A stretch of 53,788 nucleotides of DNA from Candidatus Levybacteria bacterium RIFCSPHIGHO2_01_FULL_40_16. Lineage in GTDB: Bacteria; Patescibacteriota; Microgenomatia; Levybacterales; UBA12049. The stretch lies in NCBI GenBank assembly GCA_001783805.1, contig MFNS01000002.1:1-53788 (forward strand). Reading direction: 5' to 3'. Of this stretch, positions 3,183 to 53,788 are shown piece by piece; the first letter of the stretch is position 1, and every line of letters starts with the position of its first letter. A program made the position numbers and the translations under genes. The notes below the pieces were generated by a model. The model ran no database searches. It saw only the letters and a program-made list of their open reading frames with translations, and was not told the origin of the DNA.

Positions 3183-5234
3183 TCAGGATGACAACGGAGA
3201 TTTGCCGACATCTTCTAATTTCCAAGCCGCAAATGTGCAGGCGGGGTAATTGGAACAGCCATAGAACTTGCGGCCTTTTTTGGTTTTTTTTATCACAATT
3301 TCCCCACCGTCTTTCGGACATTTCAAGCCTGTTTGCTCAACATAAGCTTTGGTAAATTTGCAATCGGGAAATCTAGAACAAGCAAAGAATTTGCCAAATT
3401 TTCCCGTTCTGATTATTAAATTTCCTTCACTACATTTAGGACATTTTTCGCCCGTTTCCTCAACTGCAATTTTTACTCTTTCCGCTCCTTCGACTTCGGT
3501 TAATTTTTTCTCAAACGGCGTGTAGAAATTACGCAAAACAAGTTCCCATTTTTTTTCTCCGATAGCAATATTATCAAGTTCATCTTCCATTGATGCGGTA
3601 AACGGAATATCGTCAATATATGAAAAATTTGTAACCAGGAAATCGCTGACGGCAATTCCGATTGCGGTCGGAGAAAATTTACCTTCTTGCCGTTCAATAT
3701 AGTTGCGGGCTTCAATGGTAGAGATAATCGTTGCGTAAGTTGAAGGCCTGCCAATTCCCTTTTCCTCTAATGTCTTGATAATCGATGCGTCATTGTATCT
3801 GGGCGGGGGCAAAGTTTCATGTTCTTTTTCCAAAACGTCGACAAGATCAAGCTTTTCACCGTTATTAAATTTGGGTAATTTATTATCAGACATTCCCAGC
3901 GGATTTACTTTCAAAAACCCGTCAAAAACAAGCACTGATCCGTTAGCTTTTAATTTATAAGAGCCTGCATCCACAAAAACCGTGGTTGACTCGACTACCG
4001 CGTCCGACATCTGCGATGCAACTGCCCGTCTCCAAATCAATTCGTATAATTTCCACCCCTGACTCCCAACTAAATTTGAAATTTGAAATTTGAAATTTGA
4101 AATTTCGCCGAAGGCAGTTGGTCTGATTGCTTCATGTGCTTCTTGGGCTAATTTTTGTTTGGCAGAATAAATTCTCGGTTGTAATGGCACATATTTGTCT
4201 CCATATTCTTTTTTAACGAAATTGATAATTGCAAACATCGCCGCCTGACCTATCGTTACGGAATCTGTTCTGTGATAAGTAATGTATCCTTCCTCATATA
4301 ATTTTTGCGCCAAACTCATGGTTCTTTTTCCATTGATATATAATTTATGCGCCGCATCCTGCTGAAGAGTTGAGGTTGTATATGGCGCTTGCGGGCTTCT
4401 GGTAGTGGCTTTCTGCAAAATATCTGCCACTGTAAATGTTTTCGTTTTTAAATCACCAACAATTCCTAAAGCTTTTTCTCCGGAGCCAATTGAAGTTTTA
4501 GTAACCTTATACTGCCCATCATACAGATCAAAAGTCTTCGCCACCTCAATCTTTTGGCCATCAATTTCTACCAGCTCGAATAATGTTTCCTCAGGTTTTG
4601 AGTTTTGAGTTTTGAGTTTTGAGTTCACCAGCGCCGCAGCGATGGTGTAGTATTTTTCTTTTCCAAACTTCTCAATTTCCCTTTCTCTTTCTACTATCAA
4701 ACGCAGGGCGACTGATTGAACGCGCCCCGCAGACAATCCCCTACGGACTTTTTTCCACAAAAGTGGAGAAAGTTTATAACCAACCAGCCTGTCTAAAACC
4801 CGGCGCGCGGTCTGCGCGTCAACCAAATTTTTATCTATGGTTCTGGGATTTTTTAGCGCCTCTTCAATTGCTTCTTTCGTTATTTCATGAAATACTATCC
4901 TATTGAATTTTTCATTTTTAACTTTTAATTTTTCATTTGAGCGGAGCATATCGGAGATATGCGAGGCGATCGCTTCTCCCTCCCTATCTGGGTCAGTAGC
5001 CAGAATAATTTGATCCGCTTTTTTTGCTTCAGTCTTAAGTTCGGCAATAATTTCCTCTTTATCCGCGACCATCTCGTATAAAGGCTTGAAGTTGTGCTCG
5101 AAATCTATGCCGATTTTGCTTTTAGGCAAATCCATAACGTGCCCCATTGAGGCTTTAATAACATAATCGCTGCCCAAAAACTTTCCAATTGTCCTAGCCT
5201 TTGTAGGACTTTCTACGATAACCAAACTTTTCAT
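3183..5234 (-). CDS. topA: DNA topoisomerase I (type IA) with C-terminal C4 zinc ribbons
   Basis: LVIVESPTKA, ATDPDREGEAI, SAGRVQS, GYITYHRTDS, AHEAIRPT and C-terminal CPKC/CSRFPDC repeats. Confidence 0.98.
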   Translation of the reverse strand: MKSLVIVESPTKARTIGKFLGSDYVIKASMGHVMDLPKSKIGIDFEHNFKPLYEMVADKEEIIAELKTEAKKADQIILATDPDREGEAIASHISDMLRSNEKLKVKNEKFNRIVFHEITKEAIEEALKNPRTIDKNLVDAQTARRVLDRLVGYKLSPLLWKKVRRGLSAGRVQSVALRLIVEREREIEKFGKEKYYTIAAALVNSKLKTQNSKPEETLFELVEIDGQKIEVAKTFDLYDGQYKVTKTSIGSGEKALGIVGDLKTKTFTVADILQKATTRSPQAPYTTSTLQQDAAHKLYINGKRTMSLAQKLYEEGYITYHRTDSVTIGQAAMFAIINFVKKEYGDKYVPLQPRIYSAKQKLAQEAHEAIRPTAFGEISNFKFQISNLVGSQGWKLYELIWRRAVASQMSDAVVESTTVFVDAGSYKLKANGSVLVFDGFLKVNPLGMSDNKLPKFNNGEKLDLVDVLEKEHETLPPPRYNDASIIKTLEEKGIGRPSTYATIISTIEARNYIERQEGKFSPTAIGIAVSDFLVTNFSYIDDIPFTASMEDELDNIAIGEKKWELVLRNFYTPFEKKLTEVEGAERVKIAVEETGEKCPKCSEGNLIIRTGKFGKFFACSRFPDCKFTKAYVEQTGLKCPKDGGEIVIKKTKKGRKFYGCSNYPACTFAAWKLEDVGKSPLSS

Positions 5235-5386
5235 AACAATTTAACAATACAACAATTTAACAATTGTTCATTTATTGTGAAGAGATTATACACGACCTGT
5301 CAAGCCCCTAAAATAAAATTCCCATGATCTTGACATGTGCCGTTATTACGTATAATAATAAGTTATAACGTCAACAGAAAACATTT

Positions 5387-5602: not shown

Positions 5603-6505
5603 ATGGGAATAATCGAAGTCGGAATCAGCCTTAAGTTTGCCCCAAAAACAAATCCTGAGCAAACCGTCGGACAAATAGTTGATTATTACAATCGGATGGA
5701 GCCTAGCTTCCTTAATGTTTGGCAAGGCGCCTGTCATTTCGGATATACGGAAAAAGGAGAACGTTTTGAATTAAAGTCTGCTTTAAAAACTATGGAAATG
5801 AGGCTTGGACAAGAGCTCAATTTACATCTAAATTCGACAGTTCTCGACGCCGGTTGTGGTTATGCACGAGTTGCCACAACTATGGCTCAGCAGTTTGGCC
5901 TTAATGTTTTAGCGTTAGATCTCATACAAAAACGTCTGGACGAAGCCAAGCGCTATGCCCGAGAACAAGGTGTTGAGGAAAAAGTCAGCTTAATTCGAGG
6001 CAATTACTGCAATATGAAAAAACAAATTGCTGATTTTTCTATTGATGGAGTCTATACTATGGAAACTTTAGTGCACGCCGACCCCCTTGAGACGGCATTA
6101 AGTGAGTTCCGGCGCGTGCTTAAACCCGGTGGGAAATTAGTTCTTTTCGAATATTCAGTACCCTCATACGAGAAATTGGACCCAATACGCCGGACAATAA
6201 CAGATGCTATGGTCCGAAAAACCGGCATGCCCAGTATTAAATTTTTTGCCCACGGCGCTTTCCCGAAAATCTTGGAAGCTGCTGGTTTTGAAAATATTGC
6301 AATGAAAGATATCAGTCATAACGTCTGGCCAACTTGGCGATGGGCTTTTTGGAGAAATCTTCGAGAGAACAACCTGATGCTTTTGCCAAAAATTCTTAGT
6401 GGAAAAATTATGAAAAATACCAACTTGATGGCCGCACTGATGATTTATCCATACCGACACCAACTTAAATACAATATCATTACCGCCACTAAACCCAAAG
6501 ACTAA
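5603..6505 (+). CDS. Class I SAM methyltransferase of the sterol/tocopherol C-methyltransferase-like group
   Basis: YY...W..xHFGY N-terminal motif, VLDAGCG, DGVYTMETLVH and RVLKPGGKLVLFEY. Confidence 0.85.
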   Translation: MGIIEVGISLKFAPKTNPEQTVGQIVDYYNRMEPSFLNVWQGACHFGYTEKGERFELKSALKTMEMRLGQELNLHLNSTVLDAGCGYARVATTMAQQFGLNVLALDLIQKRLDEAKRYAREQGVEEKVSLIRGNYCNMKKQIADFSIDGVYTMETLVHADPLETALSEFRRVLKPGGKLVLFEYSVPSYEKLDPIRRTITDAMVRKTGMPSIKFFAHGAFPKILEAAGFENIAMKDISHNVWPTWRWAFWRNLRENNLMLLPKILSGKIMKNTNLMAALMIYPYRHQLKYNIITATKPKD

Positions 6506-6610
6506 ATTTATAAAACTAAGAATTTTTTACTCATCCCTAATTCCCCAAGCGCAAACAAGATGATACAACGCGTGTCAAGAGGCGGATCGCATGATATCAA
6601 AATTCCGGGT

Positions 6611-6835
6611 TCATTTTCGGGATTCCAAAAGATGTTTAATCCCTTCTGAAAGTTTATCTAGTAGTCCATCTTGTTCTAAACCGTTTTCCGTTAGTTCGCC
6701 TGTTTGATTATGTACCTGAACATCTTGAGAATTATCGCACGATTCTATCTTTATAAAAGATGCAATTAAAGCACCTGTTAGAAAATATGGTATAATTTTG
6801 TTTCTGAAAAAATTTCCAACTTCTTTCCCATTCAT
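6611..6835 (-). CDS. Small hypothetical membrane protein
   Basis: 74 aa with a hydrophobic N-terminal segment; TATAAT lies 8 nt upstream of the ATG. Confidence 0.5.
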   Translation of the reverse strand: MNGKEVGNFFRNKIIPYFLTGALIASFIKIESCDNSQDVQVHNQTGELTENGLEQDGLLDKLSEGIKHLLESRK

Positions 6836-6905
6836 AAGATTAAATTATACAATACCTGTCAAGACTACTGGAACTATGAGCCTATTTGTTATATAATGCG
6901 ACCTT

Positions 6906-8759: not shown

Positions 8760-8828
8760 AAATCTAGCTTATCACATTGATTAAGAGTTAATCTTGACTC
8801 ATAAAATCCATAATTATATAATTCCATA

Positions 8829-9075: not shown

Positions 9076-10806
9076 TCAGCGGGAAAACCACTCTTCCAAG
9101 ATTTTTTTCGCGATGGGGGCGGCAACGTTGGAGCCCTCTCCTGAAGCCTCCGACAAAACTGTCACGATAATTTCCGGTTTTTCTGCCGGGGCAAAAAGCG
9201 TGATCCAAGCATGTGGTAAAGTTTCTTCCCCACCATGTTGTGCAGTTCCCGTCTTGCACGCAATTTTTATTTCTTCCTCATCTTTGAGATTTGATTTTTG
9301 ATTTTTGATTTTAAAATTAAACAGCGGCCAGGCAACTCCTCCCGCAGCACATGATTCAACCATCCCCTCCTTAATCAGGTCAGACGTCTCCCTGCTTAGA
9401 AATTTTTCATTTTTAACTTTTAATTTTTCATTTTTCAGAAGGTGGGGCTTATAAATAACCCCTTCATTGGCAATCGCTTGGGTCCAAACATTGATTTGCA
9501 AGGGAGTTGTCAGCAAAAAACCCTGCCCGATTCCATAATGATAGGTATCTCCCAAATACCAATTCTCCCCGATTGTGCTTTTCTTCCATTCTCTTGTCGG
9601 GACTAGACCCTCTTGCTCACCCAGAAGATCAATCCCTATTTTTTTTCCCAAACCGAACTTTTCTGCGAAGCCAGCAAGCTTGTCAACTCCGACTAATTCA
9701 GCCAATTTGTAGAAAAAAATGTCATTTGATCTTTGAATAGCTTTTACCACATTTACTTCTCCATCCGTCCTTCCGTATTGGGTAAAGTACCAGTTGGAAA
9801 AAGAAAAAGAACCAATTCTTAAAATTCCCGTATCTTCTATAGTAAAATTCCGATCGATAACTTTATTCTCCAATCCTGCCGCAGCGACAATCAGCTTGAA
9901 GGTTGATCCCGGAGGATATGTCCCTCCAATTGCGCGGTTCAAGAGGGGCTGACCTTCTGAATCCGATAAGATTTGTGACACGGATTTATAAGGCGTCGTC
10001 TCCCCCACGGAATATCCTTCACCCATAGTAAAAAGGTTGGGATCAAAAGGCGGACTGGACAGAAGGGCTAAAATTTCACCCTTGGGACTGGACACAATTA
10101 TGGCTCCTTTTTTGATATCTTTGGCCGCGTCAAACGCGGCTTTTTGCAGTACAATGTCCAAGGTAAGCGTAACATTCTGTCCGGGTACTGGATCTGTAAA
10201 GCCTAGTTTCCGGACAACTTTACCCAGACTATTTATTTCAACCAGTTCTCTTCCATTAATTCCGGCGAGTTTAGCTTCGTATTCTCTTTCAATTCCGATT
10301 TTCCCAATCAAATCTCCGCCCCCGTAGAGGGCAAAATCTTTATTTTTTAATTCTTCCGGAGAAATTTGTCCGATATAACCCAAAACATGGGAAAAAATGT
10401 CTTCATACGGATATTGCCTCAAGACGTCAATCTCCAAATTATTTTCTCCTTCGGATAAAAGTTTTAACGCTTCATTTTCATCTATAAGTTTTGTTTTACC
10501 GTTTAACGTCTGCCTAAATCCTGGAACATTAAAAACCAAGGGTACTCCTGTTCTATCAAAGATAATTCCGCGGGGAGCATGGATGGGAATAGTTCTTGTT
10601 CTATTGCTATCCGAAAGATTTCGAAAACTTTCTCCTTTAATAATTTGCAGAAAAAAAAGTCTTGCAACAATTAAGGTTACTGCTATTATCAAAATTACGG
10701 GCAAGATGTAGCTTCTCACGGAATAGTTTTTGTCAAAATTTCCGGGATGTTTTTGGCTTTTTTCAAGTCTTATATAGTCTCCGAATGCAGGCCCAATTTT
10801 AACCAT
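9076..10806 (-). CDS. mrdA: Penicillin-binding protein 2
   Basis: APRGIIFDR, PGSTFK (SxxK), SND (SxN) and KTGT; located in the mre cluster. Confidence 0.95.
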   Translation of the reverse strand: MVKIGPAFGDYIRLEKSQKHPGNFDKNYSVRSYILPVILIIAVTLIVARLFFLQIIKGESFRNLSDSNRTRTIPIHAPRGIIFDRTGVPLVFNVPGFRQTLNGKTKLIDENEALKLLSEGENNLEIDVLRQYPYEDIFSHVLGYIGQISPEELKNKDFALYGGGDLIGKIGIEREYEAKLAGINGRELVEINSLGKVVRKLGFTDPVPGQNVTLTLDIVLQKAAFDAAKDIKKGAIIVSSPKGEILALLSSPPFDPNLFTMGEGYSVGETTPYKSVSQILSDSEGQPLLNRAIGGTYPPGSTFKLIVAAAGLENKVIDRNFTIEDTGILRIGSFSFSNWYFTQYGRTDGEVNVVKAIQRSNDIFFYKLAELVGVDKLAGFAEKFGLGKKIGIDLLGEQEGLVPTREWKKSTIGENWYLGDTYHYGIGQGFLLTTPLQINVWTQAIANEGVIYKPHLLKNEKLKVKNEKFLSRETSDLIKEGMVESCAAGGVAWPLFNFKIKNQKSNLKDEEEIKIACKTGTAQHGGEETLPHAWITLFAPAEKPEIIVTVLSEASGEGSNVAAPIAKKILEEWFSR

Positions 10807-13021: not shown

Positions 13022-13043
13022 ATTATTTCAATCCCCCAACGAC
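13022..13043. repeat. Direct repeat copy 2 (actual mreB 3' end, VVGGLK-stop)
   Basis: ATTATTTCAATCCCCCAACGAC. Confidence 0.9.
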
Positions 13044-14123
13044 TTTTACCCTTTGCAGGAGTGAATCGTTTTCCAGGACGCGCCCGGTTCCCCTGACAAC
13101 CGAGGTAAGGGGATCTTCGGAAAGAACAACCGGAATTTTAGTTCTCTCAACTATCAATTGATCAATCCCCGAAAGCATAGATCCTCCGCCGGTTAATAAA
13201 ATTCCATGGCTTAGAATATCATTGGTTAACTCGGGCGGAGCCTCCTGCAAAATATCCGAAATTCCCTCCATAATTTCAGCTAAAACCGGAGCCAAAGCTT
13301 CCCTGATCTCCACTTCTGTCAGGCGCAAGCTTTTCGGAAGTCCTGTTTCGATATCTCGTCCCCTGACGACTGCCATTTTCTCCTTTATTCCCTCATTTGA
13401 CTTTTCTCCTGAGCCTTCTGAACGGGCAACTTTTAACCTTGGTTGGAACGCGCTTCCTATTTTTATTTTTACATCTTCCGCAGTCTTCTCTCCCATTATC
13501 AAGCCGTGTCTCAGTCTGACATAATGAATAATCGCATTATCCATCTCCTGTCCAGCAACTTTTAAAGATTTACTTACCACAATGCCGCCCAAAGATATAA
13601 TTGCAATCTCCGTGGTTCCTCCGCCAATATCTACAACCATCATTCCGGTTGGAGCAAAAACCGAAACCTTTTCTCCGATTGCCGCGGCCATTGGTTCTTC
13701 GATCAAAAATGCTTCCCTGGCTCCCGCCGAAAGAGCTGCTTCCCAAACAGCACGGCGCTCAACTTCGGTAACAGAAGACGGAATACCGATGACAACTCTG
13801 GGGCGGGACCAGGCAACGGGAAGAACATTGCCAACTTCATGGACTACTTGAATATAGTAAGAGATCATTGCCAGGGTCGCATCAAAATCCGCAATCACCC
13901 CGCCCTTCAAAGGTGATACCGTGATAATTGACGGAGGAGTTTTTCCAACCATTCTTTTGGCCTCGGTCCCGATCGCAATGATTTTCTTGGTTTTTTTGTG
14001 CATTGCCACTACCGAAGGCTCTCTTATAACAATTCCCTTATCTTTTACCCAAATTAAAGTATTTGCAGTTCCGAGATCTATACCAATATCATGGGAAAAA
14101 TAAGAAAAAAATTTGCCAAACAT
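13023..14123 (-). CDS. mreB: Rod-shape determining actin homologue MreB
   Basis: DIGIDLGTANT, IEEPMAAAIG, VVDIGGGTTE and LLTGGGS. Confidence 0.98.
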   Translation of the reverse strand: MFGKFFSYFSHDIGIDLGTANTLIWVKDKGIVIREPSVVAMHKKTKKIIAIGTEAKRMVGKTPPSIITVSPLKGGVIADFDATLAMISYYIQVVHEVGNVLPVAWSRPRVVIGIPSSVTEVERRAVWEAALSAGAREAFLIEEPMAAAIGEKVSVFAPTGMMVVDIGGGTTEIAIISLGGIVVSKSLKVAGQEMDNAIIHYVRLRHGLIMGEKTAEDVKIKIGSAFQPRLKVARSEGSGEKSNEGIKEKMAVVRGRDIETGLPKSLRLTEVEIREALAPVLAEIMEGISDILQEAPPELTNDILSHGILLTGGGSMLSGIDQLIVERTKIPVVLSEDPLTSVVRGTGRVLENDSLLQRVKVVGGLK

Positions 14124-14131
14124 ATAGAGAA

Positions 14132-14240
14132 AATTTTCAATTTACAGTTTACAATTTTCAATAAATGATCCAATTATCAATGCTTGAAACATTGCGTGAT
14201 TGAAAATTTAATGAAAATTGCAAATTGGTAATTGCAAATT
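14132..14240. repeat. Intergenic palindromic element built from inverted heptamer arrays
   Basis: Left arm AATTTTC-AATTTAC-AGTTTAC-AATTTTC; right arm ...GAAAATTG-CAAATTG-GTAATTG-CAAATT. Related to 20042-20149. Confidence 0.75.
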
Positions 14241-14295
14241 GTTTTTATCATAGCATACTCTTGACAAGAAAATAAAATTATGTCACTCTAGATAC

Positions 14296-14790
14296 ATGAA
14301 TTTACCCGGAGAAGGAACAGCGGACAATGCCGATCTCACTCGTTCGGCTACAGGAATTTCGACACATGAACCAAGCACTGTAATTCCGGCTTCAGATAAA
14401 CAAAGGAAGGAATTTTTGTCGGGAGCAAACATTGGCTCAAAATCAATTAGCGAAATTTCCGCTAACCCCGCCCCCACAACTGAAGCTACAGGAATTGCAA
14501 GAGATATAACCGCAGAAACAGCAATAAAAGCTAATGCCGCCGCCAAAGCAGTGAAGCCGGTAGCAGAAACAGTGGTTCCAGCAATACAAACTGCAGACCC
14601 AGCAGCACCGGAAGCTGCTCAGGAACCAAAAACCAACGAACAACAGCTAGAGGAATTAAGACAAAAAATGAAACAGGCTGAAGAAGCAAGGGCTGCACAA
14701 AAACCACCGGTCATAACTCCGGACGAAGCTGTGGCCGGAATAAATCCCGATAGGTTAAAACTTGTTCAAGATCTCAAGAAATCTCAATAA
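14296..14790 (+). CDS. Hypothetical low-complexity Ala/Pro/Thr/Glu protein
   Basis: 164-aa ORF; TTGACA lies upstream near 14260. Confidence 0.55.
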   Translation: MNLPGEGTADNADLTRSATGISTHEPSTVIPASDKQRKEFLSGANIGSKSISEISANPAPTTEATGIARDITAETAIKANAAAKAVKPVAETVVPAIQTADPAAPEAAQEPKTNEQQLEELRQKMKQAEEARAAQKPPVITPDEAVAGINPDRLKLVQDLKKSQ

Positions 14791-14850
14791 GTCTCTTCTC
14801 GCAATTGCTTGTTCCAACCTAAATAATGTGTTAAGATTGGAAAATCTAGG

Positions 14851-17202
14851 ATGAAATTCCTCAATCTTTGCAACCGGATTATCGAATATTCTTTCTATAC
14901 CCTTTTTCTTCTGGTTCCGCTTGCTTTTACGAGTGCTACTTCCGAGCTTTTTGAGTTGAATAAAATGTGGCTTGTCTGGGGACTAACTATTATTATTGGC
15001 GCGTCTTGGTTTATAAAAATGATTCTTCAAAAACGAATTCTGCTTTGCAGAACACCCCTGGATATTCCAATCGGTCTCTTTCTCCTTTCTCAAATCATCT
15101 CCACTATTTTCTCTCTGGATCCGCATGTTTCTTTGTGGGGTTATTATTCCCGCTTTAACGGCGGATTACTGTCCATAATTTCCTACATTTTGCTGTACTA
15201 TGCATTTTTAAGTAATTTCGATTCTCAAAAATTATCCGCTGTAGTCCGTAGACTATTGACCATAAGCTTAATATCCGGCCTGATTGTGGCGTTGTGGGGA
15301 CTTCCCTCTCATTTCGGCTACGACCCGACTTGCTTACTTTTTCGGGGCCAATTTAATGTTGCTTGCTGGACAGATGCTTTTCAGCCAAAAATCAGAATTT
15401 TCTCAACACTGGGACAGCCTGATTGGCTCGCCGCCTACCTGGCCATTCTAATACCAATTTCTATAGCAATGGCATTAAATAATTTACGAGCTCAAAATAA
15501 TCCTGATAATAAGTATCATGTATCAGGTGTCATGTATTATGTATCTAATAAAAAAATACTACATACTACCTACTACATACTACTTACTGCATTATTCTAC
15601 GTTGATCTCCTTTTCACTCGTGCGCGCTCCGGATTTTTGGGAATTTGGCTTTCTCTTATTTTTTTCGCCGCTTTATATTATCGGATCAGCGGCAAACCAA
15701 AATTATCCATATCAGCCGAAAATCTAAAATCTCCTATTGCCATTTTGATTTTTGGACTATTAATTATTACCTTCATCATCGGCACGCCGATTAACCAATT
15801 GAATAAGTTCACGCTTGCAGGAATCGGGAGCATTTTTCAGAAACCCGTAACTACTGAAACACAGGAAGATAAAGCACCCATTCAACCATCTGATTCCGGA
15901 GGGACAGAATCGGGAGACATAAGACTTTTAGTTTGGGAAGGCGCGTTAAGCACTTGGAGAGCAAATTTCCTCTTTGGCACAGGAGTGGAAACGTTTGCTT
16001 TTGCTTATTACAGGTACAAGCCCGTTGGCCAAAACCTAACCTCCGAATGGAACTTCCTATACAACAAAGCCCACAATGAGTTCCTTAACTATCTTGCGAC
16101 CACCGGCATTTTTGGATTAGGAACTTACCTACTCATGATCAGCTCTTTTTTCTTTGTAGGCTTTAAGAAGCTCAAAGCGCAAATGTCAAAACTCAAAGAT
16201 GAAACTCAAAACGAAAAGCTTTCAGCTTTAAGCTGTAATTTTGAGCTTTGCATTTTGAGCTTTGCACTACTGGCAAGCTACGTCTCCATCTTGATTACCA
16301 ATTTCTTTGGATTTTCCGTTGTCATGACAAATGTATATTTATTTATGCTTCCCGCTTTTGTCTTTGTTTTAAGCAATACGATTAAGACAGAAAGATCCGC
16401 GCAATCCGCCAACTCATCCGCGAAAATCTACAATAACGAATCTAACAATATGTATCAATGGACCGGTATTTTCTTTATAATTCTTGCTTCATTATTCATG
16501 ATTCTAAACTTAGTCCGTTTCTGGCAGGCAGATATTGCCTATGCTTTGGGCTATAATCTAGACCAGGCCAAAGAATATCAACAAGCCTATCCAAATTTAC
16601 ACAAAGCAGTAGAACTTCGGGGAAATGAGCCTGTTTTTAAAGACGAGCTTGCCATAAATGATGCAATTATTGCCGCAGGATTGGTCTCTCAAAAGCCTAT
16701 TGATTCAACTACAAAAGAACAAGCGGTCAGCGTTGCTTCTTCTTTGGCTCAAGAAGCAATTAACACTAGCAATGAAGTCGTTTCTCAACACCCAAACAAT
16801 GTAGTCTTTTGGAAGACCAGGGTCAGGCTTTTTCTTACTCTTGCTCAAGTTGATTCCCGATATTTGCCGCGTACTCTGGATGCGGTTGAAAAAGCTTCTC
16901 TTCTTGCTCCTAACGATGCAATTATTTGGTATAATCTCGGTGTTTTATACGGACAGAATAATAATCTTGAGAAGGGAATTTCGGCTCTGGAAAAAACAAT
17001 TAAGCTCAAGCCCGATTACAGGGATGCGCGTTTTGGATTAGGCATTTTTTATCATACTGCTTCCCTGGATAAAGACAGAAAGGTAGTTGTGGATCAGACT
17101 CTAAATCAAAAAGCAATCGCCCAAATGCAATATATTTTGGATAATCTATCTCCGAAGGATGCAGATGCCCTAAAATCCATTGAGGATTGGGCCAAACTCT
17201 AA
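14851..17202 (+). CDS. O-antigen-ligase/O-oligosaccharyltransferase-like membrane protein with C-terminal TPR
   Basis: Multiple TM helices, STLGQPDWLA, FTRARSG, GTGVETF, KAHNEFLNYLATTGIFG and TPR-like WYNLGVLY...ARFGLG. Confidence 0.85.
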   Translation: MKFLNLCNRIIEYSFYTLFLLVPLAFTSATSELFELNKMWLVWGLTIIIGASWFIKMILQKRILLCRTPLDIPIGLFLLSQIISTIFSLDPHVSLWGYYSRFNGGLLSIISYILLYYAFLSNFDSQKLSAVVRRLLTISLISGLIVALWGLPSHFGYDPTCLLFRGQFNVACWTDAFQPKIRIFSTLGQPDWLAAYLAILIPISIAMALNNLRAQNNPDNKYHVSGVMYYVSNKKILHTTYYILLTALFYVDLLFTRARSGFLGIWLSLIFFAALYYRISGKPKLSISAENLKSPIAILIFGLLIITFIIGTPINQLNKFTLAGIGSIFQKPVTTETQEDKAPIQPSDSGGTESGDIRLLVWEGALSTWRANFLFGTGVETFAFAYYRYKPVGQNLTSEWNFLYNKAHNEFLNYLATTGIFGLGTYLLMISSFFFVGFKKLKAQMSKLKDETQNEKLSALSCNFELCILSFALLASYVSILITNFFGFSVVMTNVYLFMLPAFVFVLSNTIKTERSAQSANSSAKIYNNESNNMYQWTGIFFIILASLFMILNLVRFWQADIAYALGYNLDQAKEYQQAYPNLHKAVELRGNEPVFKDELAINDAIIAAGLVSQKPIDSTTKEQAVSVASSLAQEAINTSNEVVSQHPNNVVFWKTRVRLFLTLAQVDSRYLPRTLDAVEKASLLAPNDAIIWYNLGVLYGQNNNLEKGISALEKTIKLKPDYRDARFGLGIFYHTASLDKDRKVVVDQTLNQKAIAQMQYILDNLSPKDADALKSIEDWAKL

Positions 17203-17235
17203 TGTCAGCAGGCATAATTGTGGTATAATTGCAGC

Positions 17236-17796
17236 GTGTTTAAAATAGTCATTGCCCCAAATCCGGCTTTATCGAATATCGCAAAACCAGTATCCAAAGT
17301 AGACACTACTGTAATTGCGCTGATCGAAGAAATGAAGAAAACACTTGCCGCAACAACTGACCCTAAGGGGGTTGGATTGGCCGCGCCGCAGGTCGGTAAA
17401 TCCTTACGGATTTTCATCGCCAAACCTACAGATGAATCAAAGTTTTTGGTATTCATTAACCCTGAAATTATTGAAAAATCTGCAAAGGTTGATTATGTCA
17501 AGCGGCCTAAAAAATCAGGCAAAAAAGCTTCTAAAAAATTAGAGGGCTGCCTGTCTCTTCCAAACATCTGGGGATCTGTACTCCGCCCATCCTCTTTAAC
17601 TCTTGCTTATCTTGATGAACGGGGAAACAGTCACAAGCAAAAATTTTCTAACTTTTTAGCTACGATTATTCAACATGAAATCGACCATCTAGATGGAGTT
17701 CTTTTCCCGAAAAGAGTTTTGGAACAAAAAGGAACTCTTTATAAATCCTACAAAAACGAAAAAAACGAAGATGAGTTTGAGGAATTCGAAATTTAA
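17236..17796 (+). CDS. def: Peptide deformylase
   Basis: GVGLAAPQVG, EGCLS and QHEIDHLDG. A GTG start just after TGGTATAAT is chosen over the ORF-track start at 17218. Confidence 0.96.
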   Translation: MFKIVIAPNPALSNIAKPVSKVDTTVIALIEEMKKTLAATTDPKGVGLAAPQVGKSLRIFIAKPTDESKFLVFINPEIIEKSAKVDYVKRPKKSGKKASKKLEGCLSLPNIWGSVLRPSSLTLAYLDERGNSHKQKFSNFLATIIQHEIDHLDGVLFPKRVLEQKGTLYKSYKNEKNEDEFEEFEI

Positions 17797-18641
17797 TGAA
17801 AATTGTTTTCTTTGGCTCATCATCTTATGTCATTCCAATTCTTAGATTTTTAGTCAAAAACTTTGATTTAAAATTAGTCTTAACTACGGAAAAATCCGGA
17901 GGCGCGGTTCCGACCTTTTGCAAACAAAATAAGATTGAATTTTTATCCGTTCCCAATCTTTCCGACTCAAATCTTAAATCCTTAATCTTAAATCTTAAGT
18001 CTCCAATCGCCGTCTTGGCTGACTTTGGCTTAATAATTCCTCCTGAAATTCTTAATTTGTTTCCCAAAGGAATAATTAATCTCCATCCTTCGCTTTTGCC
18101 GAAATACCGGGGTCCGACTCCGGTTCAAAATGCGATTTTAAATGGAGATAAAATTACTGGTATCAGCATTATTAAACTTGATGAAGAAATAGATCATGGG
18201 CCAATCCTGGGACAAGAAAAAGAGCAGATTTTGGACACCGATACTGCCGAATCGTTATATAAAAGGCTGTTTGCAAAAGGAGCAAATTTATTACCCAAAA
18301 TATTGAATAAATACCTAGAAGAAAGCCTTAAGTTAATCGCCCAAAATCACGAAAACGCCACTTTTACCAAATCTTTGAAACGCGAAACCGGTTTTATCGA
18401 TACATCAAAAATTAAAGATCAAAAATCAAAAATTAAGTTAGAAAGGAAAATTCGCGCATACTTCCCCTGGCCAGGCGTCTGGACCCGCCTTCGCCTAGGC
18501 TATGGCGGGCAAGCAAAATTAAAAATTATTAAGTTTTTACCTTTTGGAAAACTTCAGGTTGAGGGGAAAAAACCGGTCAGTTACAAAGATTTTCTCAACG
18601 GCTACCCCGACGCTAAAAGCGTAATACTACCAATACTATAA
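17796..18641 (+). CDS. fmt: Methionyl-tRNA formyltransferase
   Basis: MKIVFFGS, INLHPSLLPKYRG, DHGPI and PWPG; directly follows def. Confidence 0.95.
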   Translation: MKIVFFGSSSYVIPILRFLVKNFDLKLVLTTEKSGGAVPTFCKQNKIEFLSVPNLSDSNLKSLILNLKSPIAVLADFGLIIPPEILNLFPKGIINLHPSLLPKYRGPTPVQNAILNGDKITGISIIKLDEEIDHGPILGQEKEQILDTDTAESLYKRLFAKGANLLPKILNKYLEESLKLIAQNHENATFTKSLKRETGFIDTSKIKDQKSKIKLERKIRAYFPWPGVWTRLRLGYGGQAKLKIIKFLPFGKLQVEGKKPVSYKDFLNGYPDAKSVILPIL

Positions 18642-18672
18642 ATAAACAAATAACCCAATAAGGAAAGTGGGA

Positions 18673-18900
18673 TTAGGCGGTGGCGGAAACCGGAGATGCT
18701 ACTTTGGGAGAAGCTTTTGGAGCCATTTCTTTCTTTAATTTCCTCAAGCATTTAACACAGAGTTTTACTCGCCTCAAAGTTCCATCAATCATTACGCGCG
18801 CGGGGTGAAGATTGGGTGCAAAAATCCGGTTGGTCCGATTTTTTGCATGGGACACGTTATGTCCATACATTACGCCTTTTCCGCAATTTGCACACTTCAT
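18673..18900 (-). CDS. rpmB: 50S ribosomal protein L28
   Basis: MKCANCGK...GHNVSHAKNRTNRIFAPNL...LCVKC. Confidence 0.93.
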   Translation of the reverse strand: MKCANCGKGVMYGHNVSHAKNRTNRIFAPNLHPARVMIDGTLRRVKLCVKCLRKLKKEMAPKASPKVASPVSATA

Positions 18901-18971
18901 TCCAGTACTCATAGACAAACTCTAATCCTGATAGTATACTAAAAACTGCAATCAAATACAATAATAAATCT

Positions 18972-19376
18972 GTGCTAGTTCAAAACTCAAATATCAAAAA
19001 TCAAAGCCAAAATAAAAGTCCAAAGCTGGAAGTAAAATATCGCGCGTTCTATCTATCCATAAACATTATTAAGTTTTTAGAAAAACTTTCGTATAAGGTT
19101 TCTCTTAAAATTATTAGCGATCAGTTAATCAGATGCATTACTTCCGTAGGCGCTAATATCGTCGAAGCAAAAGCATCTTCTTCTAAAAGAGAGTTTCTTA
19201 ATTACTTTCAAATATCTTTAAAAAGCGCTAATGAGGCTAAATATTGGCTGGCAATGCTAAGAGAGCTACTACCCGAAGAAGGAAAAAATATAAATGTTTT
19301 TATTCAAGAATTGGACGAAATATCTAGAATAATTGGAACAAGCGTTTTAACAATGAAAGGAAAAAGAAGTCTCTAG
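18972..19376 (+). CDS. Four-helix-bundle protein (23S rRNA IVS-protein/Avd-like family)
   Basis: DQLIRCITSVGANIVEA...SKREFLNYFQISLKSANEAKYWL. Confidence 0.9.
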   Translation: MLVQNSNIKNQSQNKSPKLEVKYRAFYLSINIIKFLEKLSYKVSLKIISDQLIRCITSVGANIVEAKASSSKREFLNYFQISLKSANEAKYWLAMLRELLPEEGKNINVFIQELDEISRIIGTSVLTMKGKRSL

Positions 19377-19432
19377 GTTTTTAACTTTGAAATAGTCTTT
19401 GATATTTGAACTTTGATCTTTGATCTAATATT

Positions 19433-20038
19433 ATGATTCTTTCCGCAATTATTACCCTAACCATTTTGCTTTTCTCCGCTATTCTCCACGAAATCGCCCA
19501 CGGTTATGTTGCGGAACGCCTTGGCGACCCGACAGCCCGCCTGATGGGGCGACTAACCCTGAACCCAAAAAATCACATCGATCCGATGATGAGTATTGCC
19601 TTACCTTTAATACTATTAATTACGGGATCTCCGATTATTATCGGTGCAGCTAAACCTGTTCCGGTTGATCCTTTTAATTTGCGCGACGGCAGAAAAGATA
19701 TGGCATTGGTTTCCCTCGCCGGACCTTTGACAAACGTCGCTTTGGCCATCGCTGCCAGCTTAATCTTAAAATTTATTCCATATTCCATTTTCTACGATTT
19801 ACTTGCGGCCATTACACATTTAAATCTCCTGCTGGCAATTTTCAACTTATTACCGATTCCCCCTTTGGACGGATCCAAAATCTTTGCCCTGCTTCTCCCG
19901 GAAAAACTGGCTAATGCATATCTGTCTTTGGGGTCAATTGGAATTTTTATTATCTTTTTCCTACTGATGATCTCCAGCACGCTGGGAAACCTGATCTTCA
20001 ATCTCCTCACTTTCTCGGAAAAACTCCTAGGATTGTAA
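19433..20038 (+). CDS. Site-2 protease (peptidase M50)
   Basis: HEIAH, GRLTLNP, AGPLTN and NLLPIPPLDG. Confidence 0.93.
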   Translation: MILSAIITLTILLFSAILHEIAHGYVAERLGDPTARLMGRLTLNPKNHIDPMMSIALPLILLITGSPIIIGAAKPVPVDPFNLRDGRKDMALVSLAGPLTNVALAIAASLILKFIPYSIFYDLLAAITHLNLLLAIFNLLPIPPLDGSKIFALLLPEKLANAYLSLGSIGIFIIFFLLMISSTLGNLIFNLLTFSEKLLGL

Positions 20039-20041
20039 AAT

Positions 20042-20149
20042 AATTTTCAATTTGAAATTTAAAATTTTAAATCAAATCTAAATGTTTTAATTTTAAAAAT
20101 TTAAAATATTGAAAATTCAATGAAAATTAAAAATTGAAAATTTAAAATT
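20042..20149. repeat. Intergenic palindromic heptamer element (second copy of the 14132 family)
   Basis: Shares AATTTTCAATTT (12/12) and ATTGAAAATTyAATGAAAATT (20/21) with 14132-14240. Confidence 0.75.
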
Positions 20150-20195
20150 ATATATCTATTGACTTCCCCCCCCAACTTTGTCATATTTAATTAAG

Positions 20196-21755
20196 ATGAA
20201 CTTTCTCAGAAAGTTTCGTGATTTTATTTTATCTCCTTCGCGCTCAAGAACAATGGGACTTCTGGCTGTGCTGGTGCTTGTCTCCGCAGTTTCCCTGACC
20301 GTAATTGTCGCCCAACAACAACAAACTCTCAAACAAAGGGCAGCCTCCGCTTGTTATGATGCCTCTGATTGTGAAACAGGTTATTTTTGTAACAACGGCA
20401 AATGCCAGCCCGTAACCGGAGACGCCTGCACCGCAAATGGAGGAAATTGTATTCCGATGGGGCCATGTGTTCCACCCTCTGTCCAAGATGCAAGTTACAG
20501 CTGCGGTAACAATCCGAACGGATCTGTTTGCTGTACAACCCCCTCTTTTAATTGCGTTGATAAAGATTGTTTTAGCAGTCAAACCTGCATCGGAAGTCTT
20601 TATGACGATTCAACATACTGTCTTAGTAAGGGAGTTGGCATAATCGGATCTTATTGCGGAAAACCCGACAAAACCCCAAACAATGAAGCTTGTGCTTCAG
20701 GATATTGCAATCCTACTACCCTACTTTGCTCCGCTGGCTGTACGGATACAGGAAGTACCTGCACTGATAGCATAGAAACATGGACGGACTTCTGTAATGG
20801 TAATACTGCTAATGATTATTTTTGCGGAAGTAATGGGCAATGTAATCAGAGAGCTTCGAATTGCCCTCCTCCGACAATCTGCATAGTAGATGCTGATGGT
20901 GCCGGTTGTGTTAACCCGGGTGCTCCGACGGCTCCACCCTCAGACTGTACGGAATCGGGAAATACTTGCACCGATAGCAGTGGGAGCTATACAGACAGCT
21001 GTGGCCCTACTGATGCTAACGGGACTGCTGCTCGTAATTATACTTGCGCTAATGGATATTGCAACCAATCCGCTTGGTATTGCCCCCCTCCAACAATCTG
21101 CATAGTAGATGCTGATGGCGCCGGTTGCGTTAGTCCAAATGCCCCAACCTCCACCCCAATTCCGGGAGCTCCCACCTTCACCCCCACTCCGACTCCAGTT
21201 GCAGGAGCTCCGACCTCAACTCCAACTCCTACCCCAACCCCAACCCCAATCAATTTTGTCACTCTGGTGTTGACTTTGAATGATCAGGATGTGGCATCAG
21301 CTTCGGGTGATATCTTTGCAGATCTTATTCTTTACAGTCTTAAGGACAATTCAAAAGTGCCCGGCGCGCCTGCAAAACAATTATTTACCAAGACTTTTAT
21401 TCCAGGAAAAAAATATTCGGCGAATATAACTCTTGCGAATTTACATCAGGACAAATATTTCTTGGTTGTACGGAAAAACAACATGATAGCAAAAGCTTTC
21501 TTCACTGTTTCAGCCCCGAATGAAACAATTCCCGTCCCCACGAAAACCCTTGTTTTCGGAGATATCAATAGCGATAACGATATAAATATTTCAGACTATT
21601 ATAATGATAATGCGTTTAGAGGCTGCTGGCGAAAATCAACTACTGCAGATCCTTCTTGTGCGTCATCGGATTTCGATAATAGCGGGACTGTTGAGCAGAT
21701 TGATTACAATACTTTTCTTCGAGGATTCTCAACTTGGAGTAAAGAAGGAAAATAA
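20196..21755 (+). CDS. Membrane-anchored Cys-rich surface protein with a PT linker and C-terminal dockerin-like domain
   Basis: TM helix followed by QQQQTLKQRAA, many Cys, two internal repeats, a (PT)n linker and GDINSDNDINISD...DFDNSGTVEQID Ca-binding loops. Confidence 0.75.
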   Translation: MNFLRKFRDFILSPSRSRTMGLLAVLVLVSAVSLTVIVAQQQQTLKQRAASACYDASDCETGYFCNNGKCQPVTGDACTANGGNCIPMGPCVPPSVQDASYSCGNNPNGSVCCTTPSFNCVDKDCFSSQTCIGSLYDDSTYCLSKGVGIIGSYCGKPDKTPNNEACASGYCNPTTLLCSAGCTDTGSTCTDSIETWTDFCNGNTANDYFCGSNGQCNQRASNCPPPTICIVDADGAGCVNPGAPTAPPSDCTESGNTCTDSSGSYTDSCGPTDANGTAARNYTCANGYCNQSAWYCPPPTICIVDADGAGCVSPNAPTSTPIPGAPTFTPTPTPVAGAPTSTPTPTPTPTPINFVTLVLTLNDQDVASASGDIFADLILYSLKDNSKVPGAPAKQLFTKTFIPGKKYSANITLANLHQDKYFLVVRKNNMIAKAFFTVSAPNETIPVPTKTLVFGDINSDNDINISDYYNDNAFRGCWRKSTTADPSCASSDFDNSGTVEQIDYNTFLRGFSTWSKEGK

Positions 21756-41064: not shown

Positions 41065-41157
41065 ACGGAAAAAGTAAACTGCTTAGAAATTCCGGCACAA
41101 TTTTCATGACAGTAGTTTATAGTTTAATCTAATGAACGTCAAGAGGCATGATTAGAG

Positions 41158-42880: not shown

Positions 42881-43047
42881 AATATTACAATACCTTGTAA
42901 GAAGATACTTTGCAAGTACCAATTTGAAGCTAAATCTTCCCGAAGATTAAGAAGAAGATGAATCCTTATAAGTATTTTTTGATATCAACCGCCCCAATAG
43001 ACTGCTAAACGGAGCTGAAGAAAAAGAATGTGCTATAATGAGCCGGA

Positions 43048-44097
43048 ATGAACACAACCAATGTCAAAAAATACCGCCCTATCCCGCTCTTTTATCCGTT
43101 TGTCAGCGAAGGCATGCGGCGAGCGGCTTATGATGCCTTGAAGGATAAAATTATTACCCAGGGCCAAAAAGTAATTGAGCTTGAAAAGCGCTTAAATTCA
43201 GCTCTTGGTACAAAAAACCTTCTGACTGTAAATTCCGGCAGTTCGGCTCTGGAATTAGCTTATCATCTTTTGGACTTAAAGCCCGGCGACGAGGTAATCG
43301 CTCCGGTATTCACCTGCACTATCACCAATCTTCCTCTCTTAAGAAGAGGAGTCAAAATTGTCTTTGCCGATGTGAAGGATAATCTTCTACCGGATTGGAG
43401 CGATATCGAAAGTAAAATTACTAAAAAAACCAAAGCCATAGCCGATGCTCATCTGTTCGGACAGCTCAATGAAACAAGAAATTTAGGAATACCGGTGGTT
43501 GGCGACGCAGCTCAATATTTGGGCAAAACTTTTGGTGAAAGATTTACCGCCTATTCTTTCCAGGCAGTCAAAATTATGACCACGGTAGATGGCGGAGCTT
43601 TGGTTTGTGAACGAAAACAGGATTACCGGCGGGCAAAGCTGCTTCGCTGGTACGGAATTGACCGGGAAACGGGCAAAGAAAGCTACGACGTGGACATCAA
43701 AGAAGCCGGATACAAATACCACATGAACGATGTCACGGCTGCGATTGGCATTGCCGGTTTAAAAATATTGGATAAGCTGAAAAAAGAACGTGCTACGCTC
43801 CAAAACCACTACAAGGAATGTTTAAGAGATATTCCCGGCCTTCAAGTTATTGGCGGCTCTCCATTTCTTATTCATGTTTTCAATCGGAAAAAACTTATGC
43901 ATAAACTGGCCATGGCAGGAATTGAAACAGGCCTTGGACATCGCCGCAATGATATGTATACGGTCTTCGGGGGAAGAAGACAAAATCTACCCAATATGAA
44001 CCGCTTGGAAGAAACTTATCTCCTGCTCCCCTGCCATAACCACATGACGGCAAATGACGTAGACTATATCTGCGAATCAATTAGAAAAAATATATGA
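43048..44097 (+). CDS. DegT/DnrJ-family aminotransferase
   Basis: NSGSSAL, GDAAQ, SFQAVKIMTTVDGG and GYKYHM. Confidence 0.92.
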   Translation: MNTTNVKKYRPIPLFYPFVSEGMRRAAYDALKDKIITQGQKVIELEKRLNSALGTKNLLTVNSGSSALELAYHLLDLKPGDEVIAPVFTCTITNLPLLRRGVKIVFADVKDNLLPDWSDIESKITKKTKAIADAHLFGQLNETRNLGIPVVGDAAQYLGKTFGERFTAYSFQAVKIMTTVDGGALVCERKQDYRRAKLLRWYGIDRETGKESYDVDIKEAGYKYHMNDVTAAIGIAGLKILDKLKKERATLQNHYKECLRDIPGLQVIGGSPFLIHVFNRKKLMHKLAMAGIETGLGHRRNDMYTVFGGRRQNLPNMNRLEETYLLLPCHNHMTANDVDYICESIRKNI

Positions 44098-51917: not shown

Positions 51918-53788
51918 ATGCTTAAATTTTATTACAGTAATTCCACCAACACAGCCACCCCAGGAAGCTGGCATGGAACTTGGAACGACAATGCTTCGGC
52001 TGTCACCAAATTGCTCGATACTGCTGCCAGCGGTACGGGTCCAAATGAACTCCCAATTACTGAAAACCAAAATTCTGCGGATTACAACGTTGCCATGGGA
52101 AGGTGGATTTCCGAAGCGCTGCCTACGGGAACCGTCTTTACCGCAGGCTCAACCACTTGGCAGTCTGTTGTGGGTGTGGGGGAAGATAACGCTGCTGCTG
52201 ATGAATTTGATAGATTCTACATTTGGATTTGGACGGGAAATGGCACCGGCGATTCATCTGCAGCTAATCTCGTTGCCAACGCAAATAACGCTACCGAATG
52301 GACAACGATTGTAGCCGGAAGACAGATGCTTAATTCCACTACCAATGCCATAGCCGATTCATACACTACTATTGCAGGAGACAGGCTAGTCGTAGAATTT
52401 GGTTATCATTCCACAAGTCAAGATACCACTACTTATACAGGCACGATGTGGTACGGGGGTGTGGGTGGAGATTTGGGCGTAAACGGCAACGAAACTAGCC
52501 TATCGGCATGGATACAATTTGATGGTGTTCCATCAGCCAGCCCATCTATATCGCCTTCTGCCAGTGCATCTATATCGCCATCCGCCAGTGAGTCCATCAG
52601 CCCCAGCGCTTCTCTATCGGTTAGTCCGTCAATCTCCCCTTCCGCCAGCGAGTCTATTTCGCCATCCGCCAGCGAGTCGATTTCGCCATCCGCCAGTATT
52701 TCTGCCAGTCCATCAATCAGTCCTTCCGCAAGTGAGTCGATTTCGCCGTCGGCCAGCGAATCAATATCGCCTTCGGCCAGTGAGTCGATATCGCCATCCG
52801 CCAGTGCGTCTATTTCGCCGTCTGCCAGTGAATCGATTTCACCGTCCGCCAGCGAGTCCATTTCACCGTCTGCCAGTGAATCGATTTCACCGTCGGCTAG
52901 TGAGTCTATAAGTCCTTCAGCCAGTGAGTCAATTTCACCATCCGCCAGCGTGTCAATTTCGCCGTCTGCCAGCGAGTCAATTTCACCTTCGGCCAGCGAA
53001 TCAATTTCACCATCTGCCAGTCCGTCAGCAGGTTCAGAATCTCCATCTGCCAGTGAATCAATTTCGCCGTCAGCCAGTGAGTCTATTTCTCCTTCCGCCA
53101 GTATTTCTGCCAGTCCATCAATCAGCCCTTCCGCAAGTGAGTCGATTTCGCCTTCTGCCAGCGCTTCAATTTCACCATCCGCCAGTGAGTCGATATCGCC
53201 TTCGGCCAGCGCTTCAATTTCGCCGTCTGCCAGCGAATCGATTTCACCGTCCGCCAGTATTTCAGTTAGCCCATCGATCTCTCCGTCTGCCAGCGAATCG
53301 ATTAGTCCGTCTGCAAGTGCATCCATCTCTCCATCTGCTAGCGAGTCGATTAGTCCTTCTGCCAGTGAGTCAAGGTCACCTTCAATCAGTCCGTCAGCCA
53401 GTGAATCAATATCTCCATCCGCTAGTGCTTCCATCTCCCCTTCAGCCAGCGAGTCCATTTCACCGTCTGCCAGTGAGTCCATAAGTCCCAGCGCTTCTCT
53501 ATCAGTCAGTCCATCAATTTCGCCTTCTGCTAGCGCCTCCATCTCTCCATCTGCAAGTGAGTCGATATCTCCATCAGCAAGTGTGTCTATTTCTCCGTCT
53601 GCCAGCGCATCGATTTCGCCGTCAGCCAGTATTTCTGTCAGTCCGTCAATCAGTCCGTCGGCCAGCGCTTCAATTTCACCTTCAGCCAGCGAGTCGATCA
53701 GTCCTTCCGCCAGCGAATCAATTTCACCTTCCGCCAGCGAGTCAATCTCTCCATCCGCCAGCGCTTCAATTTCACCTTCTGCAAGCGA
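51918..53788 (+). CDS. Serine-rich repeat protein, partial (more than 620 aa, open at the window end; missed by the ORF track)
   Basis: My translation from ATG 51918 has no stop: about 204 aa of unique Trp/Thr/Gly-rich domain, then (SASESISP)n from about 52530. Confidence 0.9.

Follow-up and report, generated by a model that had tools for sequence, protein, structure and literature searches.

The window examined here, the whole stretch of 53,788 nucleotides of contig MFNS01000002.1, comes from an aquifer population of Candidatus Levybacteria (Microgenomates, within the candidate phyla radiation, CPR), represented by the assemblies GCA_001782525.1 and GCA_001782335.1 and by JGI/ENA contigs. 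It holds two elements built of tandem heptamers and lacking an open reading frame (ORF), termed E1 and E2, which a first-pass annotation made from the sequence alone had described as empty versions of a gene-carrying palindromic cassette in the same window (Table 1). E1 separates the divergent gene mreB (−) and an unknown ORF at 14296–14790 (+), and is 8 nt from the mreB ATG. E2 begins 3 nt past an M50 peptidase gene, counted from its stop codon, and 9 nt separate the end of E2 from the −35 box of the following gene. Both elements sit between protein genes, and not in the tip of a ribosomal RNA (rRNA) helix such as helix 25 or 45.

Table 1. Positions in the window of E1, E2 and the features discussed with them (a dot marks features without strand).
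Feature	Position	Strand	Description
E1	14132–14240	.	ORF-less palindrome of the AATTTTC family; profile score 72 bits, E = 3e-20
E1 left arm	14132–14166	+	AATTTTC AATTTAC AGTTTAC AATTTTC AATAAAT
E1 centre	14167–14198	.	variable among family copies; CAATG/CATTG motifs (alignment)
E1 right arm	14199–14240	+	ATTGAAAATTTAATGAAAATT GCAAATT GGTAATT GCAAATT
E2	20042–20149	.	ORF-less, A/T-rich subfamily, weak hairpin; 48 bits, E = 1e-12
mreB	13023–14123	−	PF06723, from translation; leader contains E1
Extended −10 box TGCTATGAT	14247–14255	−	resembles the conserved mreB promoter of relatives; E1 lies between box and ATG
Outward promoter-like TTGAAA-17-GAAAAT in E1	14133–14161	−	consensus match only; GAAAAT ends 9 nt before the mreB ATG
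Promoter-like TTGACT-17-CATATT (with TG)	20159–20198	+	8 nt, then ATG 20196 of a Cys-rich secreted protein gene
Full cassette of the window	18977–19431	+	TCAAAAC-type left array, PF05635 four-helix-bundle ORF 18972–19376, complementary right array
topA-leader palindrome	5235–5280	−	short AACAATT/AATTGTT array that abuts the topA start codon; similar general kind
In-frame heptamer arrays	1137–1169, 4072–4105, 4595–4625, 4906–4938, 9290–9312		within genes of the window
In-frame heptamer arrays, continued	9402–9437, 15513–15592, 16217–16264, 17970–17998, 18404–18433		within genes of the window

The layout proposed in the first-pass annotation, with a left 7-mer array, a short centre and a complementary right array in about 110 bp, was recovered at both places, and the two strings that the elements were said to share (identical at 12 of 12 and 20 of 21 positions) occur more often than expected. 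The first, AATTTTCAATTT, has exact matches at 14132 and 20042, plus a reversed one at 20131, and with up to one mismatch it has 15 matches in the window where 4.4 are expected, a number reached by none of 100 shuffles. The second, ATTGAAAATTYAATGAAAATT, lies at 14199 and 20108, and also at 17784 with two mismatches (3 matches, 0.06 expected). Over their whole length, E1 and E2 are 72% identical across 111 nt. Tandem Repeats Finder (TRF) reports a period of 7 at 14132–14162, 14215–14241 and 20049–20149, and there are 15 period-7 tandem arrays in the window compared with 0.2 after local shuffling, other periods being at background. The element boundaries (14132/14166 and 20108/20149–20150) were taken from public reads and contigs, in which the arms are repeated and the centre is variable, with the loose ends of other copies beginning at 14132 and parting ways after 14166. 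No significant match to Rfam was found over 13900–20400 (E ≤ 1), nor in the window as a whole at gathering thresholds.

The two elements differ in palindromy. The arms of E1 (14124–14185 and 14187–14248; 62 nt, 71% complementary) form an imperfect palindrome with a near-perfect centre, and its folding energy is −35.3 kcal/mol (z = −4.7). Terminal inverted repeats forming a long stem are present in E1, whereas they are weak in E2, in which the arms measure 19–28 nt and the fold (z = −1.45) is equalled by 16 of 200 shuffles. The palindromy of E2 by itself would not be convincing.

Beyond the window, E1 and E2 have many relatives. A scan of metagenomes with the pattern AATTTTCAATTT-N45–75-AATGAAAATT returned more than 120 stretches at the least, and about three-quarters of the matches listed are obvious full-length relatives, the remainder being chance A/T-rich matches. 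A family profile built on 56 relatives, and run over 1.2 Mb of fetched DNA, gave at least 106 near-full copies among the matches listed, with up to 3–5 copies or part-copies on a contig, which bears out the earlier suggestion of a family. In its members, the left arm is built of tandem AATTTTC-type heptamers and the right arm of GAAAATT-type ones. An alignment of 67 copies contains near-invariant positions beyond those imposed by the pattern, for example CAATCAA left of the centre and CATTGAAAATTC right of the centre. Copies generally fold well, with a median z of −4.7 and z < −2 in 96% of them. The closest fetched relative of E2 is the mreB-leader element of another species (L012), with 87% identity over 115 nt, and the family is abundant both in Levybacteria and in other uncultured groundwater bacteria. 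Independent support for a repeat family comes from the loose ends mentioned above together with the depth of contigs from one groundwater run (X6), which reaches 3405 over E1 and 4969 over E2 where the flanks are at ~10–15 (200–400 times the flanks). Family copies also recur beside nusG (five loci) and rplK (four loci), as at 2184–3310 of contig L151, and close to highly expressed operons the copies may have common or preferred places of insertion.

Members of this family are also present as short loop insertions in 23S rRNA, at putative sites of the classical intervening sequences (IVSs). Copies with scores comparable to that of E1 are held in the large-subunit (LSU) rRNA of contigs L069, L085, L137 (three copies) and L064. 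In L069, the element takes the place of the hairpin loop just 5′ of GGUAGGGGAGCGUU. From the E. coli 23S structure, we take this loop to be that of helix 45, the classical IVS site. Contig L137 is without the copy of L069, and shares with L064 one located ~500–700 nt into the gene, at a site that is empty in L069. The contrast between L069/L085 and L137/L064 indicates that occupancy differs between related rRNA genes. Mobility of the family is supported by such presence/absence differences. The 23S rRNA gene of L137 (309–4470) is heavily interrupted, carrying a group I intron (4237–4465) besides its three AATTTTC-family copies. The window itself has the 5′ end of a 16S rRNA gene at its edge (1–93, −), and the 23S rRNA gene of the species was sought through contigs reading past the 16S (L157–L159). 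In these the 16S is not followed by a 23S, so that the rRNA genes are unlinked, and no family copy was found there. The same contigs have GIY-YIG ORFs in the 16S region, and then genes for a glycosyltransferase or other proteins.

The central loop of some copies contains a PF05635 gene, and site occupancy varies among related genomes. Contig L124 has two PF05635 genes (E about 1e-17), both enclosed by AATTTTC-type arms, and their start codons come from the CAATG of the element (MKQFSNNY... and MAQFSNNY...). A right arm follows one of the genes and a whole palindrome the other, and the left half is also present in three tandem copies. An optional PF05635 (S23p) ORF in the loop is therefore a feature present at family level, E1 and E2 being ORF-less. 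At the site orthologous to E1, the relatives L011 and L015 both have a PF05635 ORF flanked by a left and a right array, with the conserved promoter ahead of the left array and the mreB ATG after the right one. Their PF05635 proteins share 77% identity, as vertical descent would allow, and the gene-carrying state is therefore probably old at this mreB-leader site. Between the PF05635 gene and the right array of L015 (9698–9820) there are nested G+C-rich inverted repeats (gtcattcccgcgaaagcgggaatc ... ggattccgtgtcaagcacggaatgac) with no relation to the heptamer family.

The putative promoter box TGCTATGAT was identified in a comparison of the region upstream of mreB across 23 Levybacteria loci. 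In a tree of PBP2 the window is sister to L011, within a clade whose members all have an mreB-leader palindrome, and lineages outside that clade have a short mreB spacer of the leaderless type. Five further relatives (L010, L012, L014, L016 and L018) have empty palindromes of other heptamer types at the site. The AATTTTC-type empty element of the window is unrelated in its arms to the element of L011, which points to replacement or turnover and not to a simple internal deletion. Within the window, the ORF of the full cassette matches PF05635 (E = 6e-19; PDB 2rld), but the arms of this cassette belong to the TCAAAAC subfamily, and E1 and E2 therefore did not arise from it by deletion. The earlier description of E1 and E2 as the cassette without its gene is thus borne out by gene-carrying copies of the family on L124 and by the PF05635-carrying palindromes at the E1 site of L011 and L015, and not by the cassette of the window. 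At the E2-orthologous site, downstream of the M50 gene, there is no synteny in relatives and no clean empty site was found; L018, uniquely among the relatives, has a degraded PF05635 cassette at the equivalent position.

On this evidence it is probable, at roughly 0.7, that E1 and E2 belong, as copies without a gene, to a dispersed palindromic family of ~105–115 bp, of the rRNA-IVS type, and reside outside rRNA. The elements would be selfish or near-neutral insertions, spreading without target duplication and persisting where a hairpin in the transcript is harmless, at the tips of rRNA helices and in short spacers just before start codons. E1 would have inserted between a leaderless-type mreB promoter (−10 box 14255–14247) and the ATG, and E2 would have been placed in the spacer behind the M50 peptidase gene. 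Once transcribed, the AU-rich stem of ~45 bp would probably be cut by RNase III, restoring a short leader, and by analogy such removal would account for the tolerance of the elements in rRNA and in essential-gene leaders. The arms may then be remodelled through heptamer slippage, which a topA array one heptamer shorter on contig L162 suggests to be active in this population.

Several observations weigh against this interpretation. Every one of the near-identical strains (L001–L009) has both E1 and E2, with no recent insertion or empty site at either, so that here the empty-site comparison failed; E1, E2 and the cassette are 100% identical among these strains, with one mismatch at one locus for the 251-bp E2 query. 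E2 and its subfamily are weak folders. No RNA runs containing E1 or E2 sequence were found, and the RNase III step is argued by analogy. The search pattern skews the sample towards copies with E1/E2-like ends, and taxonomy was determined for only a minority of the metagenome contigs. Nothing shows selection for an RNA stem: RNAalifold predicted no consensus structure for the 67-copy alignment, and under a hand-set structure 87.1% of cells were paired versus 87.4% in shuffles, with compensatory changes not above the control. A conserved structured RNA under compensatory selection was dropped as a candidate, as covariation is no higher than in shuffles. Palindromy is a property of the conserved consensus, and the variable heptamer positions drift independently, as the decaying copies of a mobile repeat should.

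A bolder version, offered tentatively and in our judgement rather unlikely, would make IVSs the rRNA-resident fraction of a mobile-element class, as yet undescribed, for which hairpin loops are the target. The PF05635 (Avd-like) protein would be the factor for mobility or maintenance and the heptamer arrays the module for recognition or processing, with gene-less elements such as E1 and E2 mobilised in trans, colonising rRNA helix tips and housekeeping leaders, and rendered harmless by RNase III excision.

The closest known kind of element is the 23S rRNA IVS, of which E1 and E2 would be ORF-less relatives outside rRNA. ORF-less IVSs of ~100 nt occur in Salmonella and Yersinia. IVSs carrying an S23p/PF05635 ORF occur in Leptospira and Coxiella. 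Although IVSs and this ORF have been known since about 1990, where they came from, how they move and what the protein does are questions not yet answered; the helix-45 IVS of Coxiella has terminal inverted repeats, the S23p ORF, strain-variable tandem heptamers before the ATG and excision by RNase III (PMC4990558). In the CPR, many short ORF-less insertions at IVS sites of rRNA genes, and some with 23S_rRNA_IVP ORFs, have been reported (PMC11270868). The E1/E2 family resembles the IVSs in the long stem of terminal inverted repeats, in the optional PF05635 ORF in the loop, in the variable-copy tandem heptamers by the ORF start (Coxiella) and in the presence of its members in 23S hairpin loops. 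It differs in that E1 occupies an mRNA leader and E2 an intercistronic spacer, in that their arms are wholly heptamer arrays, and in that RNase III excision, which is known for the IVSs, is extended to E1 and E2 by analogy only. No description of the dispersal of an IVS family outside rRNA was found in the literature.

Other small repeats share some of these features. The Correia elements (NEMIS) of Neisseria are miniature inverted-repeat transposable elements (MITEs) that are co-transcribed with genes, cut by RNase III and provided with outward promoters. They too are palindromic intergenic repeats (~100–150 bp) located by gene starts, with hairpins in mRNA leaders and promoter-like ends, but their inverted repeats are defined and they duplicate a TA target, whereas no duplication was found for the E1/E2 family, and they are not known to have heptamer arrays, rRNA copies or a gene-carrying form. 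Repetitive extragenic palindromes (REPs), with their composites BIME and REPINs, are mobilised by RAYT (Y1) transposases, the REPs being ~35 bp in length and placed mostly at the 3′ ends of genes. These are likewise short, palindromic, extragenic, multi-copy and hairpin-based, without a known target duplication. In contrast, the E1/E2 family is ~110 bp long and avoids convergent spacers, and a search confined to the 2 kb around its copies turned up no RAYT-like gene.

Heptameric simple repeats, such as STRR of Calothrix and Nostoc and GGGAATC of Xanthomonas, are also tandem and mostly intergenic, with some inverted pairs, and vary at each site in length and sequence among close relatives (PMC4692102). 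They are described as simple repeats, with no mention of a conserved ~110-bp palindrome that has a defined centre, is also present in rRNA or carries PF05635 as a passenger. E1 and E2 have the head-to-tail tandem heptamers that mark heptameric simple sequence repeats, and copy-number variation is seen as a one-heptamer difference in the topA array of one strain, yet E1 and E2 also have conserved non-repetitive parts. PF05635 genes have been described as intercistronic inserts in operons, for example in cas loci, and are similar to those of the window (18972–19376), L011, L015 and L124 in being intercistronic at unrelated loci, but the study that described them (PMC3936711) did not report flanking inverted heptamer arrays or gene-less derivatives.

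Among the other explanations, the one that survives best, although we consider it doubtful, is that the elements are a portable cis-regulatory module, the terminal four heptamers of which act as an outward TTGAAA-N17-GAAAAT promoter or as an A/T-rich UP element and are retained for leaderless or short-leader transcription. This is compatible with an origin as IVS-type insertions, and the placement of the copies fits it in several respects. Their contexts are co-directional in 69 cases, divergent in 13 and convergent in 3, against a background of 277, 48 and 50, so that convergent spacers are avoided (3/85 vs 50/375). The element often fills the whole spacer, and 33 of the 59 outward ORFs begin 0–11 nt from its end, with a mode of 7–8 nt that matches the 6–9 nt between −10 box and ATG at many genes of the window; in E1, the TTGAAA-17-GAAAAT ends 9 nt before the mreB ATG (Table 1). 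Genes 16–19 nt away have a Shine-Dalgarno sequence, which closer genes do not. However, start-facing ends are not more promoter-like than stop-facing ends (8.33 vs 8.24 of 12, p = 0.57), four terminal heptamers automatically yield TTGAAA-N17-GAAAAT, and GAAAAT is a weak −10 box. The family also occupies rRNA helices, where a promoter role is absent, and E2 is followed by a canonical promoter of its own. A compact genome with short spacers would in any case place genes close to the element ends, and this explains much of the pattern.

Judged from its sequence, the predicted promoter just downstream of E2 has an arrangement of the leaderless type. At many genes across the window, TATAAT-like boxes, often TGn-extended, stand 6–9 nt before an ATG without Shine-Dalgarno sequence (e.g., 6885–6905, 8810–8828, 20182–20198 and 43027–43050), which suggests frequent leaderless mRNAs in this Levybacterium. 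A further motif, CTTGACAGGTnnTGTATAAT, is located upstream of topA (about 5290–5310, −) and of the ORF at 6611–6835 (about 6845–6865, −), with TGTCAAG-like motifs also near 14258–14268, 6560–6580 and 41125–41140. At the CTTGACAGGTnnTGTATAAT sites TTGACA is separated from an extended −10 box by a mere 7 nt, and this may be an unusual promoter geometry or a shared operator.

That the elements are classical MITEs, i.e., deletion derivatives of a transposase-encoding insertion sequence mobilised in trans via terminal inverted repeats, is very unlikely. The label of a MITE-like non-autonomous family, given in the first-pass annotation, is apt in that the copies, at ~110 bp, fall below the ~600 bp limit for MITEs and are numerous, dispersed, intergenic and ORF-less, with palindromic ends and conserved arms that complement each other. 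Flank matches of 2–3 nt were found in 12 of 68 copies, however, where ~8 are expected from shuffled pairing, and none were longer, with the reservation that the ends are somewhat fuzzy and very short duplications could escape detection. Longer relatives encode PF05635 only, and a search confined to the 2 kb around the copies gave no recurrent transposase-like family. The reading of an empty cassette in a non-autonomous family was thus right in substance, but a MITE is not demonstrated.

A purely local origin is equally improbable. Here, heptamer slippage, which is pervasive in Levybacteria, would have built each palindrome in place without any mobility, and E1 and E2 would be alike because both converged on A/T-rich heptamers that are favoured. 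Period-7 arrays are indeed found across the lineage (192 in 423 kb), including in frame at conserved protein positions, the heptamer type at the mreB-leader site differs between species, a one-heptamer copy-number variant is present in the population, and heptameric repeats are over-represented in bacteria (PMC4692102). This explanation is nevertheless already hard to hold, as more than 100 copies share non-repetitive parts (CAATCAAT... and CATTGAAAATTCAATG), length and architecture. The 87% identity of E2 to an element at another locus in another species, the rRNA-helix copies with their presence/absence differences and the depth over E1 and E2 all argue against it as well. Lastly, a REP-like 3′ stabiliser or terminator, ending or protecting the upstream transcript, is likewise very unlikely: the position of E2 directly behind a stop codon speaks for it, as do the co-directional setting and strong folding of most copies, but there is no T-tract, a terminator scan finds nothing at E1 or E2, convergent spacers are avoided, E1 lies between two gene starts and E2 folds weakly.

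Heptamer arrays are also found in frame inside housekeeping genes of the window, namely topA, fmt and those for PBP2, a SpoU/TrmH-type methylase and a Wzy/TPR protein. The arrays encode SN.K.Q-type peptides, for example ISNLKSQISNLK and SNFKFQISN, and the coding strand always has the TCAAA sense, the reverse of which would put TGA in frame. In orthologues, different heptamers are arrayed at matching protein positions. The in-frame arrays of PBP2 were considered as insertions, and this was ruled out by an alignment in which the region is equally long in all orthologues. A string of ~32 nt, ATTTTTCATTTTTAACTTTTAATTTTTCATTT, is common to topA (4907–4938) and PBP2 (9402–9433) and is translated as NEKLKVKNEKF in both, and its sense strand resembles one E2-type arm. 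In L162, a contig of ERZ27254752, one AACTCAA fewer is present at about 6200–6260, in the topA array that lies at 4595–4625 in the window, and the resulting frameshift breaks topA up into two ORFs, of 219 aa and 453 aa. Either this variant is a genuine slippage polymorphism affecting an essential gene, or it was produced by the assembly. A repeat of another period, a long 24-nt tandem array with units of 8 residues, occupies 52433–53788 in a minus-strand ORF that reaches the edge of the window, with higher-order periods of 48, 72, 84 and 156 nt and a G+C content of 0.52, above that of the rest of the window.

If the family that inserts into 23S rRNA also fills mRNA leaders and spacers, in full and in empty form, then IVSs would be a special case of a genome-wide repeat family. 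Should this be true, the many short unexplained insertions in the rRNA of CPR bacteria (PMC11270868) would gain an identity, and hundreds of natural contrasts in insertion and occupancy would become available for studying the movement of the elements and the function of PF05635. In practical terms, the repeats break assemblies, and the heptamer arrays generate frameshift variants.

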